Shown here in pieces: positions 17,785-24,741 of a stretch of DNA of 59,676 nucleotides. A program made the translations under genes and the position numbers. Below the pieces are notes generated by a model that saw only the letters and a list, made by a program, of their open reading frames with translations, was not told the origin of the DNA and made no database searches. Location: assembly GCA_947628165.1 (NCBI GenBank), contig CANQYV010000003.1, positions 1-59,676 on the forward strand. Reading direction: 5' to 3'. Numbering within the stretch: the stretch's first letter is position 1; the number at the start of each line of letters is the position of its first letter. The DNA comes from an uncultured Clostridia bacterium (GTDB taxonomy: Bacteria > Bacillota > Clostridia > Oscillospirales > CAG-272).

Positions 17785-19026
17785 TTATTCCTTGACGCCG
17801 TATTTTTTGATCTTTTTCACCTCGGCCGAGATCTCGCCGTCGGCGGCGCGCATCGTAAGCTCGTCTCCGACCTTCGCGTCCGAGACGCTTTTCACGACGC
17901 CCCCGCCTCCGCCGTAAACGGCGAAATATCCGCGCGAGAGCACGGAGAGCGGGTTCAGCGCGTCGAGCTTTGCCGCAGCGCCCGAAAGCGTCAGCCGCTC
18001 AGCTCCCAGCTTCGCCTTTGCTGCCGAGGTGAGCCTGTCTGTCAGACGCTCCGCCGTCATCCGCTTTTCGCCGAGTATCGCGTATGGGTCGGTAAGGCAG
18101 CGGCGCGTCGCCAGCGACTCAAGCTCGCGCCGCTTTTTGGCGGCGAGCTCCGCGAGCGTTTTTTTGTTGTGCGTTGTGATGTTCTCTATCTTCTGCCGCA
18201 GCTCCCTCTCCTCGGGAAAGACCCTCTCCGCCGCCGCTGTCGGCGTCGGAACGGACACATCCGCGACGAGGTCGCATACGGTGCTGTTTATTTCATGACC
18301 GACGGCTGAGACGACGGGCACCGCCGACACGGCGACCGCCCTTGCCAGCCCCTCGTCGTTGAACGCCCAAAGGTCCTCGACGGAGCCTCCGCCGCGCCCT
18401 ATTATAATGACGTCGACCGTGCGCGTGCTGCTGAAGTAATTGACACCGGAGGTGAGCTGAGGCGGCGCGTCAGGTCCCTGAACAAGAGAGGGATAAATTA
18501 TTATCTTCGTCATCGGGAACCTGTCCCCTGCGACGCGGATTATGTCCCGCACGGCGGCGCCGCTCGGCGAGGTTATGACGCCGACCCGCATCGGTATCTT
18601 CGGCAGCGGGCGCTTCCTGTCCGGAGATATGACGCCCTCGGCGTACAGCCGTTTTTTGAGCTGTTCGAGCGCGACGTACATCGCGCCGACGCCGTCCGGC
18701 TGTATCATGTCCGCATATATCTGATATGAGCCGCCCCTGACGTATACAGTCACCCGTCCGTGGACGATGACCTTCATCCCGTCCTCGGGCTCAAACGCGA
18801 GCCGCGAGGCGTATGAACGGAACATGACGGCGTTCACACTGCCCGTCTCGTCCTTGAGCGAGAAATAGTAGTTGCCGGTGCTCCTGTGATTTTTGAAGTT
18901 AGATATCTCGCCCTTGACGTATACGCTGCCGAACTCCGGGTTGCCGTCAAACGTCCTTTTGACGAGCTCGTTCAGCTCCGTTACCGTCATTTCCGCCGCC
19001 CCTTCGGGGAAGCCGAAGTTATTCAT
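17785..19026 (-). CDS. xseA: Exodeoxyribonuclease VII large subunit
   Basis: GEISNF..H.STG.YYFSLKD, RGGGSVEDLWAFN, SAVGHE, PTPTAAA. Confidence 0.96.
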   Translation of the reverse strand: MNNFGFPEGAAEMTVTELNELVKRTFDGNPEFGSVYVKGEISNFKNHRSTGNYYFSLKDETGSVNAVMFRSYASRLAFEPEDGMKVIVHGRVTVYVRGGSYQIYADMIQPDGVGAMYVALEQLKKRLYAEGVISPDRKRPLPKIPMRVGVITSPSGAAVRDIIRVAGDRFPMTKIIIYPSLVQGPDAPPQLTSGVNYFSSTRTVDVIIIGRGGGSVEDLWAFNDEGLARAVAVSAVPVVSAVGHEINSTVCDLVADVSVPTPTAAAERVFPEERELRQKIENITTHNKKTLAELAAKKRRELESLATRRCLTDPYAILGEKRMTAERLTDRLTSAAKAKLGAERLTLSGAAAKLDALNPLSVLSRGYFAVYGGGGGVVKSVSDAKVGDELTMRAADGEISAEVKKIKKYGVKE

Positions 19027-22167: not shown

Positions 22168-23076
22168 ATGAAATCAAAAAGAGAAAAAAAGCGCGCCGTT
22201 TTGATAGAACGCACGGCGCTTCTGCTCGCGGCGTCGTCGGTCATATCGGCTGCCGCCTTCGTCTCATGCGGCAGGCGCGGCAGGGGGGAAGACTCCGGCA
22301 CTGCCGACGAAAGCATAACGGAGTCGGTATCCGAGACAATGCGTGAGCCGCTGAGCACGGTAATCATTGATATAAATGCCGGAAACAACGGCGAGAGCGA
22401 AACGACATCGCCGCCCGACGATACGGGCACATCATCCGGTCCCGTCGTTTCCCTGCCGCAGACGCTCGATATGGGCACAAAATATACGGATAAATTCACG
22501 TTTGTCTGCGACAGCACGATATACGGGCTGAAATCCCTCGGTATGCTGACTGACGGGCGCTCGACGAAAAACGTCGTCACGGGACAGGGCGGCTCCCTGT
22601 TCCTCGGCTCTGACGAGCCTCTCGTTTTTGCCCCCGACCTCGGCGGCGTCATGTCGGTCGAGGCGTTCTGCTCGAAAAAGCTGCCCGAGTATCTGCTCCT
22701 ATCCCTCGGTGCCGAGGACCTAAAAAAATCCGGCACTCCCCTGTCTCTCGAGGATTTCTCAGCGTCGTATCTCGCGCTGCTCCAAAAGATAAAATCGGCG
22801 TCCCCGAATACGGTCGTCATCTGCCTTTCCCTTCTCCCGGGCTCGAAAAATTCCGGGCTCTCCCTTTCCGACGTCGAGCCCTATAACGCGCGCATCCTCT
22901 CGGCAGCCGAGGCCGCCGGCGTATATTATCTTGACGCCGCGTCGTCTTTTTCCGCGTCTGACGGATATCTTCGCGTCGACTGCGACGCCGGAGACTCCCG
23001 CCTCTCTGCGGCAGGACTTGCAAGGCTGCTCGAACTTATAAGAACGCACTACATAGGAAACGGCGAACAGCAATAA
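22168..23076 (+). CDS. Lipoprotein with degenerate SGNH/GDSL-hydrolase-like domain
   Basis: Signal with FVSC lipobox-like site, S/T-rich linker; blocks FVCDS, LSLGAED, GDSRLSAAG. Confidence 0.65.
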   Translation: MKSKREKKRAVLIERTALLLAASSVISAAAFVSCGRRGRGEDSGTADESITESVSETMREPLSTVIIDINAGNNGESETTSPPDDTGTSSGPVVSLPQTLDMGTKYTDKFTFVCDSTIYGLKSLGMLTDGRSTKNVVTGQGGSLFLGSDEPLVFAPDLGGVMSVEAFCSKKLPEYLLLSLGAEDLKKSGTPLSLEDFSASYLALLQKIKSASPNTVVICLSLLPGSKNSGLSLSDVEPYNARILSAAEAAGVYYLDAASSFSASDGYLRVDCDAGDSRLSAAGLARLLELIRTHYIGNGEQQ

Positions 23077-23160
23077 AAAAACGCCCGCAAAAAGGTCGGG
23101 CGGCGATAAAACGGCATATTAAAAAGACGGCAAGAATATTGTCCTGCCATTTTTGCGCTC

Positions 23161-23198
23161 GCGCACAGATACACGGTCTAAAGACTGTATCTGTGCGC
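23161..23198. other. 13-bp-stem hairpin at the left edge of the low-GC islet
   Basis: GCGCACAGATACA-12 nt-TGTATCTGTGCGC downstream of the GNAT gene. Confidence 0.7.
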
Positions 23199-23237
23199 CA
23201 TTTAGTTCCTAACGGAGCTTGCAGCGTTCTCGGCAAA

Positions 23238-23765
23238 TCAGATGTGTTTTGATAAATACAGTACAAGATCATCGTCATTGCGGCAATCACTGTACGGCTC
23301 ACAGATCTGATCTTTAAACCAAACGCCGCTGCCGTCCGGGATGTATCCGCGCTTGACATACATTCTCTGGGCGCTTCCGTATCCTCTGTGCAGTCCCACT
23401 CCGAGATAAATCACGTCCGAATAAGAGAACGCGATTTGTTCCGCAATATCCATGAGCTTGCTGCCGATTCCTCGGCACCTGTATTTCTTAAGAACGGCGA
23501 AGTCAACGATCTCCGCATAGCCCCGATTTGCGAACGCGCCACTCTTGGCATCGGGATAAACGTTCACATACCCTGCAACACAGCCATTCCATTCGGCAAC
23601 CAAAGCGATTGATTTGCCCTCGGCTTGATGTTTAAGCCGCATCTCGTATTTTTCTATTGTCGCATCCCAGCCCTGAGCGATTTCTTCATCTGTAATGATT
23701 GTGGCATCGCTCTTTTGCAAATCCCGAATTACAATTCCGTTTTTATCATAATAGACCATGCCCAT
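23238..23765 (-). CDS. GNAT-family N-acetyltransferase
   Basis: FAVLKKYRCRGIGSKL acetyl-CoA motif A; AQRMYVKRGY; AAGGAG RBS. Confidence 0.9.
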   Translation of the reverse strand: MGMVYYDKNGIVIRDLQKSDATIITDEEIAQGWDATIEKYEMRLKHQAEGKSIALVAEWNGCVAGYVNVYPDAKSGAFANRGYAEIVDFAVLKKYRCRGIGSKLMDIAEQIAFSYSDVIYLGVGLHRGYGSAQRMYVKRGYIPDGSGVWFKDQICEPYSDCRNDDDLVLYLSKHI

Positions 23766-23829
23766 ATCTCCTTGAGCAGCGAGTTGTCACTCTGTTCCGC
23801 TTGTCGGCAAACGGGAATTTATATGCCCG

Positions 23830-24264
23830 TTAAATTTTGTCATTATAATATAGAGTGATAAGCTCCGCCATGCTTGCGGCTGCCTGTTTCCAACAAAACT
23901 CTTCATGTTCCCAAATATAGATAGCGGTTTCATCAATAATTCCGTCGGAGTCAGCATGATAGCAATAGTAATCCCCGCAGCCGTTTGTTGCAAAGAATAT
24001 AAACTTATCAAGCTCTTTTGCAAATTCTTCATCGCTGTACGATTCTTTCATTTCTCTGTTGAGTCGGGATTGGTCAACAATCTCTTTTGCAGACAAAAGA
24101 AGATATTTGTCACCGTTTAATTCCCGAAGCAGTGCCCTCAGCTCTTTCGGAAAGGGATAGCCGACTGCTTTTTCGGCGTTGTCTATCTCGTATTCGGGGC
24201 AAGGCGGTTGTATCTTTACAAATTTATTGTCTTGCGTTAACTCTAAAATCAGTTCTCTATACAT
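23830..24264 (-). CDS. SMI1/KNR4 (SUKH) family protein, immunity-like
   Basis: EIDNAEKAVGYPFPKELRALL..NG, FFATNGCGDYYCY, IYIWEHE; ATG 24264 with GAGGAG RBS. Confidence 0.85.
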   Translation of the reverse strand: MYRELILELTQDNKFVKIQPPCPEYEIDNAEKAVGYPFPKELRALLRELNGDKYLLLSAKEIVDQSRLNREMKESYSDEEFAKELDKFIFFATNGCGDYYCYHADSDGIIDETAIYIWEHEEFCWKQAAASMAELITLYYNDKI

Positions 24265-24328
24265 AACTGTCTCCTCGGCTCTGTAAAATCCCGATTTATC
24301 GAACGGTCGCCCCCATCGACATTTATCA

Positions 24329-24337
24329 TTGTACCAC
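24329..24337 (-). promoter_or_regulatory. Extended -10 promoter element driving the SMI1-GNAT islet
   Basis: TGGTACAAT on the minus strand; no convincing -35. Confidence 0.55.
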
Positions 24338-24400
24338 ACAAATGTGAAGAAATCTACTGCCCATTAAAACGGTTAATCGAAATTTCGGTCCATATCGAAT

Positions 24401-24446
24401 AAAAAAGCGCCCCGACGATTTTATCCTCGTCGGGGCGCTTCTTTTC
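24401..24446. terminator. Rho-independent terminator after divIC
   Basis: AAGCGCCCCGACGA-8 nt-TCGTCGGGGCGCTT flanked by A/T tracts. Confidence 0.85.
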
Positions 24447-24453
24447 TTTACGG

Positions 24454-24741
24454 TCATTTTTCCGATATGTTTGTGTAGTATACGATCTCGTCGGGCATAC
24501 GCATATTGAGCTTCTTTCTCGCAACCTTCATGACGTAAGCGTCGTCGAACGGAGCTTCAAGGTCGTTTTCAAGTGAAAGTATCTCCTCGTTGTATCCCGC
24601 TATGACCTCTTCGAGCTTTTCCTGCTTTGCGCGCAGCTCGTCTCTCTCGGCGTTTGACGAGAGGAGCGTCATTATGCAGAACACGGCGACCATAGCCATC
24701 ATTATTTTGAAGAAAATATTGTCCGTTATCGTTTCAAACAT
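24454..24741 (-). CDS. divIC: Septum formation initiator (DivIC/FtsB family)
   Basis: TM, coiled coil, VARKKLNMRMPDEIVY; follows yabP-yabQ. Confidence 0.75.
   Translation of the reverse strand: MFETITDNIFFKIMMAMVAVFCIMTLLSSNAERDELRAKQEKLEEVIAGYNEEILSLENDLEAPFDDAYVMKVARKKLNMRMPDEIVYYTNISEK

Follow-up and report, generated by a model that had tools for sequence, protein, structure and literature searches.

Two unrelated genes, encoding an SMI1/KNR4 protein and a GNAT acetyltransferase, lie together between an SGNH gene and divIC in a 59,676 nt stretch of DNA from an uncultured bacterium of the Clostridia (contig CANQYV010000003.1 of assembly GCA_947628165.1; this whole stretch is hereafter referred to as the window). 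They are bordered by three related 16-bp sites, A, B and C, which raises the question what these sites are and how the two genes came to be there. A preliminary description, made from the sequence of the window alone, had read the locus as an integron-like array and had interpreted the sites as recombination sites of an uncharacterised cassette system mobilised in trans. The results presented here confirm the observation and support part of the interpretation. Sites A, B and C are real: they are conserved boundary boxes of a family of small mobile elements. The SMI1-GNAT locus itself is most probably an old and partly decayed copy, carrying two cargo genes, of this non-autonomous family of gut Clostridia.

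Results

Copies of the sites are embedded in larger homologous modules

Throughout, the locus is read on the minus strand. G000 denotes the window's own genome, in which the window is contained on contig C3, and G010 that of a sister species (rabbit-gut metagenome-assembled genome (MAG) GCA_947631245). The positions and sequences reported for site A (CGATAAATCGGGATTT, 24286..24301), site B (AAATTCCCGTTTGCCG, 23805..23820) and site C (CACATCTGATTTGCCG, 23231..23246), as well as the order of promoter, ribosome-binding sites (RBS) and genes, were all found to be accurate. The motif had been thought to be absent from the remainder of the window; a fourth, weak copy (AAATTTCGATTAACCG), which we name the S0 box, is however present at 24385-24370 in the orientation of sites B and C.

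Reverse-complemented site A is identical to site B at 11 of 16 positions, and sites B and C share 10 of 16. The consensus derived previously has four matches in the window with at most two mismatches, versus 1.3 expected, a number that was equalled by four out of 100 shuffled sequences; this test is circular, and site C fails the consensus. Because the identities are modest and the consensus statistics are weak as well as circular, the window by itself is no proof. The exact 16-mer of site A is also present at C7:18013 in the 2.2-Mb genome, where about 0.001 copies would be expected in 4.4 Mb, and copies of site B with a single mismatch are located at C49:371 and C112:2119 (about 0.05 expected in 4.4 Mb). 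Around the C49 copy, a region of ∼240 nt running from a terminator through the promoter and leader is homologous to the window, and so is the stretch following the cargo stop codon. When the whole of G000 was scanned with a matrix, nothing stood out except the handful of family copies, and low thresholds gave a 1.5-2-fold excess. The C7 copy (18013-18028) is located immediately 5′ of the RBS of a gene encoding a 106-aa protein (MASSKEYLDFILGQLSELDE...) that has a different promoter; the box preceding the RBS therefore also occurs without the remaining module.

Architecture and cargo of complete elements

Nine complete elements were found, ranging from 815 to 1178 bp. Their left end is GGTCATAAAACAGTAT and their right end ATACTGTTTTATGACC, forming terminal inverted repeats of 16-23 bp that are perfect (16/16) in the element on contig C56 (6673-6658 and 5859-5874). 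These outer repeats, which bound the moving unit, do not figure in the preliminary description, and the left one is lost from the window copy. The 5′ part of the interior consists of a short palindrome, a terminator hairpin, the S0 box, a promoter whose spacer is strictly conserved in the family, and a leader hairpin with the conserved loop GGGCGACTG. The leader hairpin is followed by a pre-RBS box (..TCGACAAATCGGGATTT), the RBS and the cargo, which comprises one or two open reading frames (ORFs), each with its own RBS. Located 3′ of the cargo is a post-stop box (AAATTCCCGTTTGYCGAGAC..), with which the module J3 (AAATTCCCGTTTGYCGAGACGTTGCAAA) begins and which runs into the hairpin CCCTTTAG-GAA-CTAAAGGG. 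J3 is often followed by a spacer containing a 17-bp palindrome, after which a second cargo may be present. The last terminator (GACCGTTGACACACCGG...CAACGGTCTTTTT) and the right repeat complete the element. The pre-RBS and post-stop boxes are 17-bp inverted repeats of each other (TCGACAAATCGGGATTT / AAATTCCCGTTTGTCGA). By having its own promoter and terminators each unit departs from integron cassettes, to which the locus had been likened.

The ORFs of the complete elements are cargo only, and none encodes a transposase or recombinase. Enzymes carried by the family include several GNATs, NUDIX and HAD proteins, alpha/beta (epoxide) hydrolases, a metallo-beta-lactamase-fold protein, a hexapeptide acetyltransferase and an aspartyl protease; other cargo consists of an AraC-type regulator, SnoaL-like proteins, SMI1, small membrane proteins and lipoproteins. 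In the spacers between two cargo genes (C49:60-106 and loci L061, L067, L085, L088, L098, L117 and L138) the 17-bp palindrome has the form CTTGCCGAACAGATAAA-N13-TTTATCTGTCGGGCAAG and is positioned 5′ of the second slot. Judged by eye, each of its outer 7-mers differs at one position from what we take to be the consensus of the R″/R′ sequences of attC sites. A resemblance of GTTGCAAA in J3 to insertion sequences (IS) of the IS6/IS26 type was dropped, as the sequence is too short.

Whole elements insert into the loops of host terminators

Elements move as a whole: they are inserted in loops of intrinsic terminators of the host, at positions that differ between sister species. The sequences flanking complete copies are the two split arms of such terminators. 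In one pair of orthologous sites, G010 contains an element extending from C48:15981 to C15:262 and G000 has an uninterrupted terminator at C56:~12960; in the other, the element is present in G000 (C49:831 to C99:4798) and the uninterrupted terminator is on contig C2 of G010. The flanks of these filled and empty sites are 87-94% identical. The empty site of the second pair reads GGCAGGC-ATTTTT-GCCTGCC and the filled one GGCAGGC-G-ATTT-[GCCGGCCGGTCAT...ATGACCGCCGGTC]-ATTTT-GCCTGCC, which demonstrates that the element inserted into the terminator loop with a duplication of ∼4 bp and that its inverted repeats extend to ∼23 bp. Across the two pairs, the flanking repeats are ATTT/ATTTT and GTT. Together, the two filled/empty pairs and the lack of a recombinase inside the elements argue for mobilisation in trans. 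That part of the preliminary interpretation is thus upheld; the other part is not, as none of the results marks the 16-bp boxes as recombinase targets.

The G010 site orthologous to that of the C56 element was considered as an additional empty site and rejected, since it is occupied by an insert encoding a PadR-like protein and a membrane protein. Besides the gap between SGNH and divIC described below, this host terminator forms a second insertion hot spot, holding an element with lipoprotein cargo in G000 (C56:5859-6673) and the other insert in G010 (C48:8067-9692, L076), which comprises the PadR-like regulator, the 272-aa membrane protein and, on its 5′ side, a variant of the left repeat (GTTCATAAAGTTGGAAGTATAG). 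The Logan contigs aligned to the window and to the C56 element, which are poor at showing such structures, contained no empty-site joints or circles.

Cargo boundaries fall at the boxes

The boxes lie where the constant scaffold gives way to variable cargo. Of the three sites in the window, A corresponds to the pre-RBS box, and B and C are each a copy of the post-stop box. A matrix of the post-stop box, trained on copies from G000 and G010 only, was applied to 31 loci from other genomes that had been chosen by a 20-mer of the promoter. Within -8 to +60 nt of the stop codon of the first cargo the matrix matched in 11-12 of these 31 loci, mostly starting at -2 to +6, and it found only two or three matches elsewhere within ±400 nt. 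Permuted matrices gave 0.06-0.08 loci. The preliminary description had held that the motif would be enriched at the ends of accessory genes, and this is what the matrix detected. It had also held that breakpoints would coincide with the sites: where related elements differ in cargo, the breakpoints are located precisely at the equivalents of the sites, so that neither a lack of enrichment nor breakpoints away from the sites was encountered. The cassette layout proposed for the window holds more widely: in many genomes, small accessory genes that are unrelated to one another stand between the same promoter and leader, with site A, on one side and the post-stop box of sites B and C on the other.

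The elements on C49 of G000 and C48 of G010 illustrate such an exchange. Homology covers positions 1-240, which take in the left end and the whole leader, and resumes at the first base of J3 (452 and 763, respectively); the cargo in between is unrelated, encoding a 64-aa membrane protein in the former and a protein of ∼170 aa in the latter. Identity between the flanks of these two elements is mosaic (79%, 83% and 94%). Metagenome contigs with homologues of the window's genes diverge from it at corresponding points. Contigs with SMI1 homologues stop matching within site B, at 23811-23808, and on one of them a full J3 follows; for contigs with GNAT homologues the points of divergence are the RBS (23771-23773) and the edge of site C (23245), one contig continuing with a box of its own (AAATTTCTGTTTATCG). 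The GNAT cargo has more than 4000 homologues, the closest of which (82-87% identity) lie in co-oriented arrays of small genes encoding GNAT, GyrI-like, methyltransferase, HAD and thioesterase proteins. The junctions of one such array (L172) read AACTTCTCGTTTG... after a stop codon and ...AAAATCGGGATTT or AAAATCAGAATTTTAC before an RBS.

Two further observations concern the genomic context of leader and cargo; the first of them is, beside the matrix, the C49/C48 comparison and the diverging metagenome contigs, a fourth independent line of evidence that places the boxes at the cargo boundaries. On two human-gut contigs (L190 and L204), a slot in a backbone resembling that of an integrative and conjugative element (ICE), downstream of a gene for a 689-aa large serine recombinase and upstream of genes for an AAA ATPase and a relaxase-like protein, has the same leader and 3′ flank with box around different cargo. 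On hundreds of contigs (L180-L185) a GNAT homologue with 77% identity overlaps miaA in a mutL-miaA-GNAT operon; this fixed chromosomal homologue implies that the GNAT cargo family also has long-resident chromosomal members.

The probability that the sites are no more than short AT-rich strings that happen to be alike in an islet of low G+C content, with no repeated element behind them, is negligible. The weak statistics within the window, and the modest enrichment of the 16-nt matrix over the genome at low thresholds, are what such an explanation would predict. It is contradicted by the exact and near-exact copies, which are embedded in homologous modules of 150-240 nt, by the presence of the box at the first-cargo stop in 11 of 31 loci versus 0.06 expected, and by the retention of the boxes across families, and we count it as already refuted.

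Distribution of the family

Using the 5′ module of the C49 element as query, five copies were detected in the window's genome and three in one genome of a different family belonging to the same order. Of the 18 sampled congeners, eight had between two and eight copies each and ten had no copy. Exact copies of the promoter 20-mer were present in 83 stretches from a collection of species-representative genomes; its hosts, mostly rabbit-gut MAGs, are Oscillospiraceae, Lachnospiraceae, Acetatifactor, Christensenellales, Acutalibacteraceae and a few cultured isolates. Modules of the family are present in Oscillospiraceae and Lachnospiraceae of both rabbit and human gut. On rabbit-gut metagenome contigs the summed depth was 776-2783 over the promoter bin versus 0-5.7 over flanking host genes, and 293-488 over the right-end module versus 0-8 over its flanks; the modules are therefore far commoner in the community than the window's organism. 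A 27-mer of the left repeat had no matches in JGI metagenomes, and the leader pattern had none in a collection of viral contigs.

About 28 of the 83 loci with the 20-mer share another, nearly identical context, in which the 20-mer is located 5′ of a gene encoding a 383-aa protein (MNQELMTLDFWQDTV...) with a CHC2-type primase gene adjacent (L087, L091, L094, L096, L097, L099, L107, L110, L111, L119, L120, L125, L128, L134-L137, L145, L146, L148, L153 and L158). This context, which is also seen in the isolates Flintibacter porci, Flavonifractor hominis, Enterocloster lavalensis and Oscillibacter ruminantium, probably is the backbone of an ICE or of an integrative and mobilizable element that uses the same promoter core. 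The 20-mer GGCGACTGTTCGACAAATCG lies in an unrelated-looking GC-rich repeat beside a tRNA-like sequence on non-gut environmental contigs (L193, L194, L199, L202 and L206).

Layout and history of the window copy

divIC (24741-24454, minus strand, stop at 24454; PF04977) is followed on the same strand by a terminator hairpin, GCGCCCCGACGAGGATAAAATCGTCGGGGCGC, and a run of T residues (24407..24438), read directly from the sequence and homologous to AACGCTCCGGACGAGGACAAAATCGCCGGAGCGTTTT in other copies. This hairpin, with which the conserved blocks of the family's 5′ module begin, now also terminates divIC in the window copy. The 5′ module as a whole (terminator, S0 box, promoter and leader; 24286..24434) aligns with 77% identity to that of a complete copy, which is 240 nt long and is covered over positions 75-230; the first 74 nt, containing the left terminal repeat and the palindrome, are missing. 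The S0 box, which is kept in family copies as AAAAATTCGATTAACCG, is positioned between the divIC terminator and the promoter (24328..24358). The latter consists of the 20-mer AGTAGATTTCTTCACATTTG (24358-24339), of which the window's genome has three exact copies, and an extended -10 sequence, TGGTACAAT (24336-24328). Next comes the leader hairpin TGTCGA / loop TGGGGGCGACCGT / TCGATA (24297..24321; family consensus TGTCGAG-TGGGCGACTG-TTCGACA). Site A, the 5′ boundary of the cargo, is made up of the 3′ arm of this hairpin and the pre-RBS box AAATCGGGATTT.

The first cargo gene (23830..24264, minus strand) has its own RBS and encodes a 144-aa SMI1/KNR4 (SUKH-1) protein (PF09346, E 1e-15). Its G+C content is ∼40-42% compared to ∼57% for the genome (56.6%), and over the whole insert the G+C content drops from ∼57% to 40-49%. 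SMI1 was found in four of 40 relatives only, and in the three distant ones (G011, G030 and G012) it is present at other loci whose flanks contain no boxes; the boxes are therefore not tied to SMI1 as such. At site B, J3 is cut after ∼14 nt and is followed by a stretch faintly resembling the spacer palindrome and then by the RBS of the GNAT gene, which thus has no left box. This second cargo gene (23238..23759, minus strand; the ORF opens at 23765) encodes 173 aa from the second ATG (PF00583, E 1e-14). Site C, the start of J3 after the GNAT gene, overlaps the GNAT stop codon; its degeneracy is due to a 9-bp deletion in the window's genome, as G010 reads CAATTTCCGTTTGCAG there, which matches site B at 13 of 16 positions. 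The rest of the 3′ module (23161..23223, minus strand) contains the second hairpin type described above, in degenerate form, the sequence TTAGGAACTAAATGGCGCAC at 23212-23193, and a perfect 12-bp hairpin, GCGCACAGATAC...GTATCTGTGCGC (23198-23161), that is homologous to C1:55937-55900. A probable degenerate right terminal repeat, ATATGCCGTTTTATCG (23104..23119, minus strand), was assigned tentatively, based on a comparison by eye. The insert is closed by an intrinsic terminator, CGCCCG-ACCTTTTTG-CGGGCG followed by T7 (23082..23102, minus strand), which abuts the stop codon of the convergent SGNH gene (22168-23076, plus strand). The genes of this neighbourhood encode an M23 peptidase, DUF3021, SGNH, DivIC, YabQ, YabP, S4, HU and MazG proteins.

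G010 holds the same insert with 94% identity, and the other congeners lack it. In G003, G005 and G014 the gap between SGNH and divIC contains a plain terminator and no insert. Other genes occupy it elsewhere: in G006 one for a 4Fe-4S membrane protein, in G009 genes whose products are a sigma-like protein, a GNAT and an XRE regulator, and in G004 genes for a C5 DNA methyltransferase, a restriction enzyme and an XRE protein. The gap is a terminator hot spot at which a member of the family arrived before the split from G010 and subsequently decayed. With its left repeat missing and its right one degenerate, the window copy probably is immobile now. Within the genus, the gap (window 23076-24454, loci L026-L033) is a hot spot of gene flux.

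Discussion

The results obtained lead us to propose the following model for the family to which the SMI1-GNAT locus most probably belongs. A transposase acting in trans on the outer repeats would move the unit as a whole. The scaffold would function as a portable expression unit, shielding the cargo from read-through and supplying a promoter, a 5′ stem-loop and 3′ hairpins, and the terminator of the element may restore termination at the host terminator that has been disrupted. Members of the family would swap cargo through recombination, homologous or site-specific, that takes place within or at the conserved boxes.

Several observations weigh against this model. The window copy has no left repeat and its right repeat matches at best at 12 of 16 positions to ATACTGTTTTATGACC, so that its membership of the family rests on module homology. 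The left repeat is present in only about 11 of 80 promoter-bearing loci; much of the family may therefore consist of fragments or of other contexts, and the promoter and leader may spread independently of the repeat-bounded unit. The length of the target duplication (3-5 bp) is uncertain, because the duplications are short and come from only two pairs of sites in genomes that have diverged by ∼6-13%. No transposase or recombinase with matching ends was found. A search for a recombinase that correlates with the motif had been proposed earlier; among transposases the survey covered the rve family, whose members are absent from the element-bearing genomes G000, G006, G010 and G030 and show no correlation with the presence of the element. 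Pairs of terminal repeats in 31 genomes are all at most 1.2 kb apart, and solo matches resembling the terminal repeats all fall in coding sequence. The missing transposase is weak evidence, since most of the genomes searched are fragmented MAGs, which are prone to losing IS copies. A tyrosine recombinase encoded near two copies was rejected as mobiliser because it looks like a conserved host gene. With regard to integrons, matches to the integron integrase profile TIGR02249 reached at most 81 bits, versus a cut-off of 265, in all 41 genomes including that of the window, in agreement with the earlier view that the sites are not attC sites served by IntI.

A role in RNA structure or expression explains the conservation of sites A, B and C equally well as recombination does. 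If the boxes are expression signals only, they might constitute a 5′ stem-loop with a pre-RBS box and mRNA-stabilising 3′ hairpins, or serve for pairing between the 5′ and 3′ untranslated regions, or be the site at which a regulator binds; cargo would be swapped by homologous recombination between scaffolds, and the boxes would coincide with the cargo borders for no other reason than that the scaffold, which is all that surrounds the ORF, is conserved. This is a quite plausible explanation, if one that we would stop short of calling probable. The leader hairpin begins a few bases after the predicted transcription start, and its arms are 91% paired across 43 copies compared to 32-52% when the partner is slid; a divergent metagenome variant keeps the loop GGCGACT on a different stem. 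J3 opens two hairpins and then a terminator, the RNA duplex between leader and J3 has a mean energy of -13.0 kcal/mol versus -5.9 kcal/mol for shuffled J3, and the mosaic identity of the flanks of cargo-swapped elements is as expected from recombination between family members. However, covariation in the leader hairpin is not above that of shuffles (195 out of 500 reach it), a leader and a J3 from the same element bind each other no more strongly than do those of cross pairs (p = 0.46), and searches of Rfam gave nothing relevant for the window (E ≤ 1) or for eight family loci (E ≤ 0.1). In addition, homologous recombination cannot account for the first placing of a new ORF exactly between the boxes. 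The assignment of the boxes as dedicated recombination sites we regard as possible and yet doubtful. In its strong form, in which the 16-17 bp boxes are targets of a dedicated recombinase that acts in trans, excising and integrating single-ORF cassettes, as a counterpart of the integron in Clostridia, it becomes slightly more doubtful still. The direct repeats B and C would then permit excision of the GNAT gene as a circle, and the inverted repeats A and B inversion or capture. The relationship of the two boxes as mutual 17-bp inverted repeats fits this scheme, as do cargo swaps that break exactly at the boxes, junctions in small-gene arrays that read post-stop box, pre-RBS box, RBS, the spacer palindrome of multi-cargo elements with presumably attC-like outer 7-mers, and cargo of kinds that resemble chromosomal integron cassettes. 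It is at odds with the lack of a candidate recombinase, the sub-threshold TIGR02249 scores included, with the absence of cargo-less scaffolds and of circles or cassette-sized joints from the aligned contigs, though contigs show the latter poorly, with the box-free flanks of distant SMI1 homologues and of the left side of the window's GNAT gene, and with the plausible RNA roles of the same boxes. We consider it unlikely that gut Clostridia own a full gene-cassette system, in which single-ORF cassettes between 17-bp inverted boxes (..TCGACAAATCGGGATTT / AAATTCCCGTTTGTCGA..) are taken up and exchanged by a recombinase, being placed in promoter-bearing platforms that transpose into terminator loops and ride ICEs.

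It is very improbable that the family is a non-mobile regulon, made up of paralogous promoters and operators through which one transcription factor controls scattered small genes for stress responses or detoxification, the sites being its operators. The 20-mer in the promoter spacer, which is invariant across taxa, and the cargo of small enzymes of related kinds would suit a regulon. The homology, however, extends to the upstream terminator, the 3′ hairpins and the terminal inverted repeats, sister species show filled/empty polymorphism, and the modules are patchily distributed within the genus and identical in another family, so that this explanation is largely excluded.

If the locus is indeed a copy of a mobile element family as proposed, small accessory genes, among them those for acetyltransferases, hydrolases, NUDIX enzymes and immunity-type proteins, would travel between Oscillospiraceae and Lachnospiraceae of the gut in a standard package that expresses itself, needs no recombinase of its own and mends the terminator that it interrupts. 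This would account for many of the 'orphan' low-G+C single-gene islets at convergent gene ends, and the terminal repeats, the promoter 20-mer and the two boxes would provide a handle for annotating recently acquired genes in MAGs. The long-standing question by what means Firmicutes, in the absence of integrons, shuffle single genes would also become directly testable, since the cargo boundaries are fixed and provide a defined substrate in the hunt for the enzyme. The scaffold might furthermore serve as a ready-made portable expression cassette for genetically intractable gut Clostridia.

Several known systems resemble the family in part. Correia elements of Neisseria are miniature inverted-repeat transposable elements of ∼100-150 bp that bear promoters and terminators and contain no ORF. 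Like them, the Clostridia elements are short and non-autonomous, have terminal inverted repeats and bring promoters and terminators that affect the expression of neighbours; unlike them, they carry cargo of their own, which they are predicted to express. Phage morons are autonomous units, composed of a promoter, one accessory gene and a terminator, located between resident genes. The Clostridia units are likewise autonomous transcription units set between resident genes, but they lie outside prophages, their leader has no match in viral contigs, and they possess terminal inverted repeats and a single scaffold family. Elements of the IS30 family, such as IS1630, reportedly target the hairpins of rho-independent terminators and have short or terminator-derived flanking duplications; the preference for terminator hairpins and the short flanking duplications are shared, whereas several of the element-bearing genomes have no rve-type transposase. 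The SMI1_KNR4 domain of the first cargo, an orphan accessory gene, recalls SUKH/SMI1 immunity proteins of polymorphic toxin systems. An immunity locus was rejected since no toxin gene is adjacent, the neighbours being GNAT and divIC, and SMI1 is one of many interchangeable cargoes. Palindrome-associated transposable elements derived from IS200/IS605, which have subterminal hairpins and neither terminal repeats nor target duplication, were discarded because terminal inverted repeats and short duplications are present.

Complete integrons were not found among the Firmicutes genomes surveyed in a previous study, which also described attC-site clusters devoid of integron integrases (CALIN), arrays with no adjacent recombinase (PMC4889954). 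The Clostridia family has in common with integrons and CALIN the small accessory ORFs that occur singly, each having an RBS of its own and a conserved 3′ site, the co-oriented arrays, many of them without a neighbouring recombinase, and a cargo rich in acetyltransferases and small hydrolases. It differs in having no IntI, no attI and no single Pc promoter, each unit being equipped with its own promoter and terminators; in its 3′ box, which is conserved in sequence whereas attC is conserved in structure; and in the terminal inverted repeats that bound the moving units.

The closest known kind are the mobile insertion cassettes (MICs), defined as one or more passenger genes between two inverted repeats with no transposase inside or nearby, a duplicated target and presumed mobilisation in trans (PMC3913671), examples of which are MIC231 of Bacillus cereus and the qnrD mic elements of Proteeae. 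The Clostridia family has all of these features: terminal inverted repeats that bracket passengers, no transposase inside, target duplication with filled/empty polymorphism and presumed mobilisation in trans. The two kinds are also alike in size, for which the range is ∼1-1.5 kb. A limited literature search yielded no description of the family, which may exist under another name, and it apparently is undescribed. It is set apart from MICs by having no known parent IS, by a built-in scaffold of terminator, promoter, leader and 3′ hairpins, by the exchange of cargo in slots with fixed inner boxes, by insertion into terminator loops, and by the combination of one scaffold family with dozens of unrelated cargoes across Oscillospiraceae and Lachnospiraceae.

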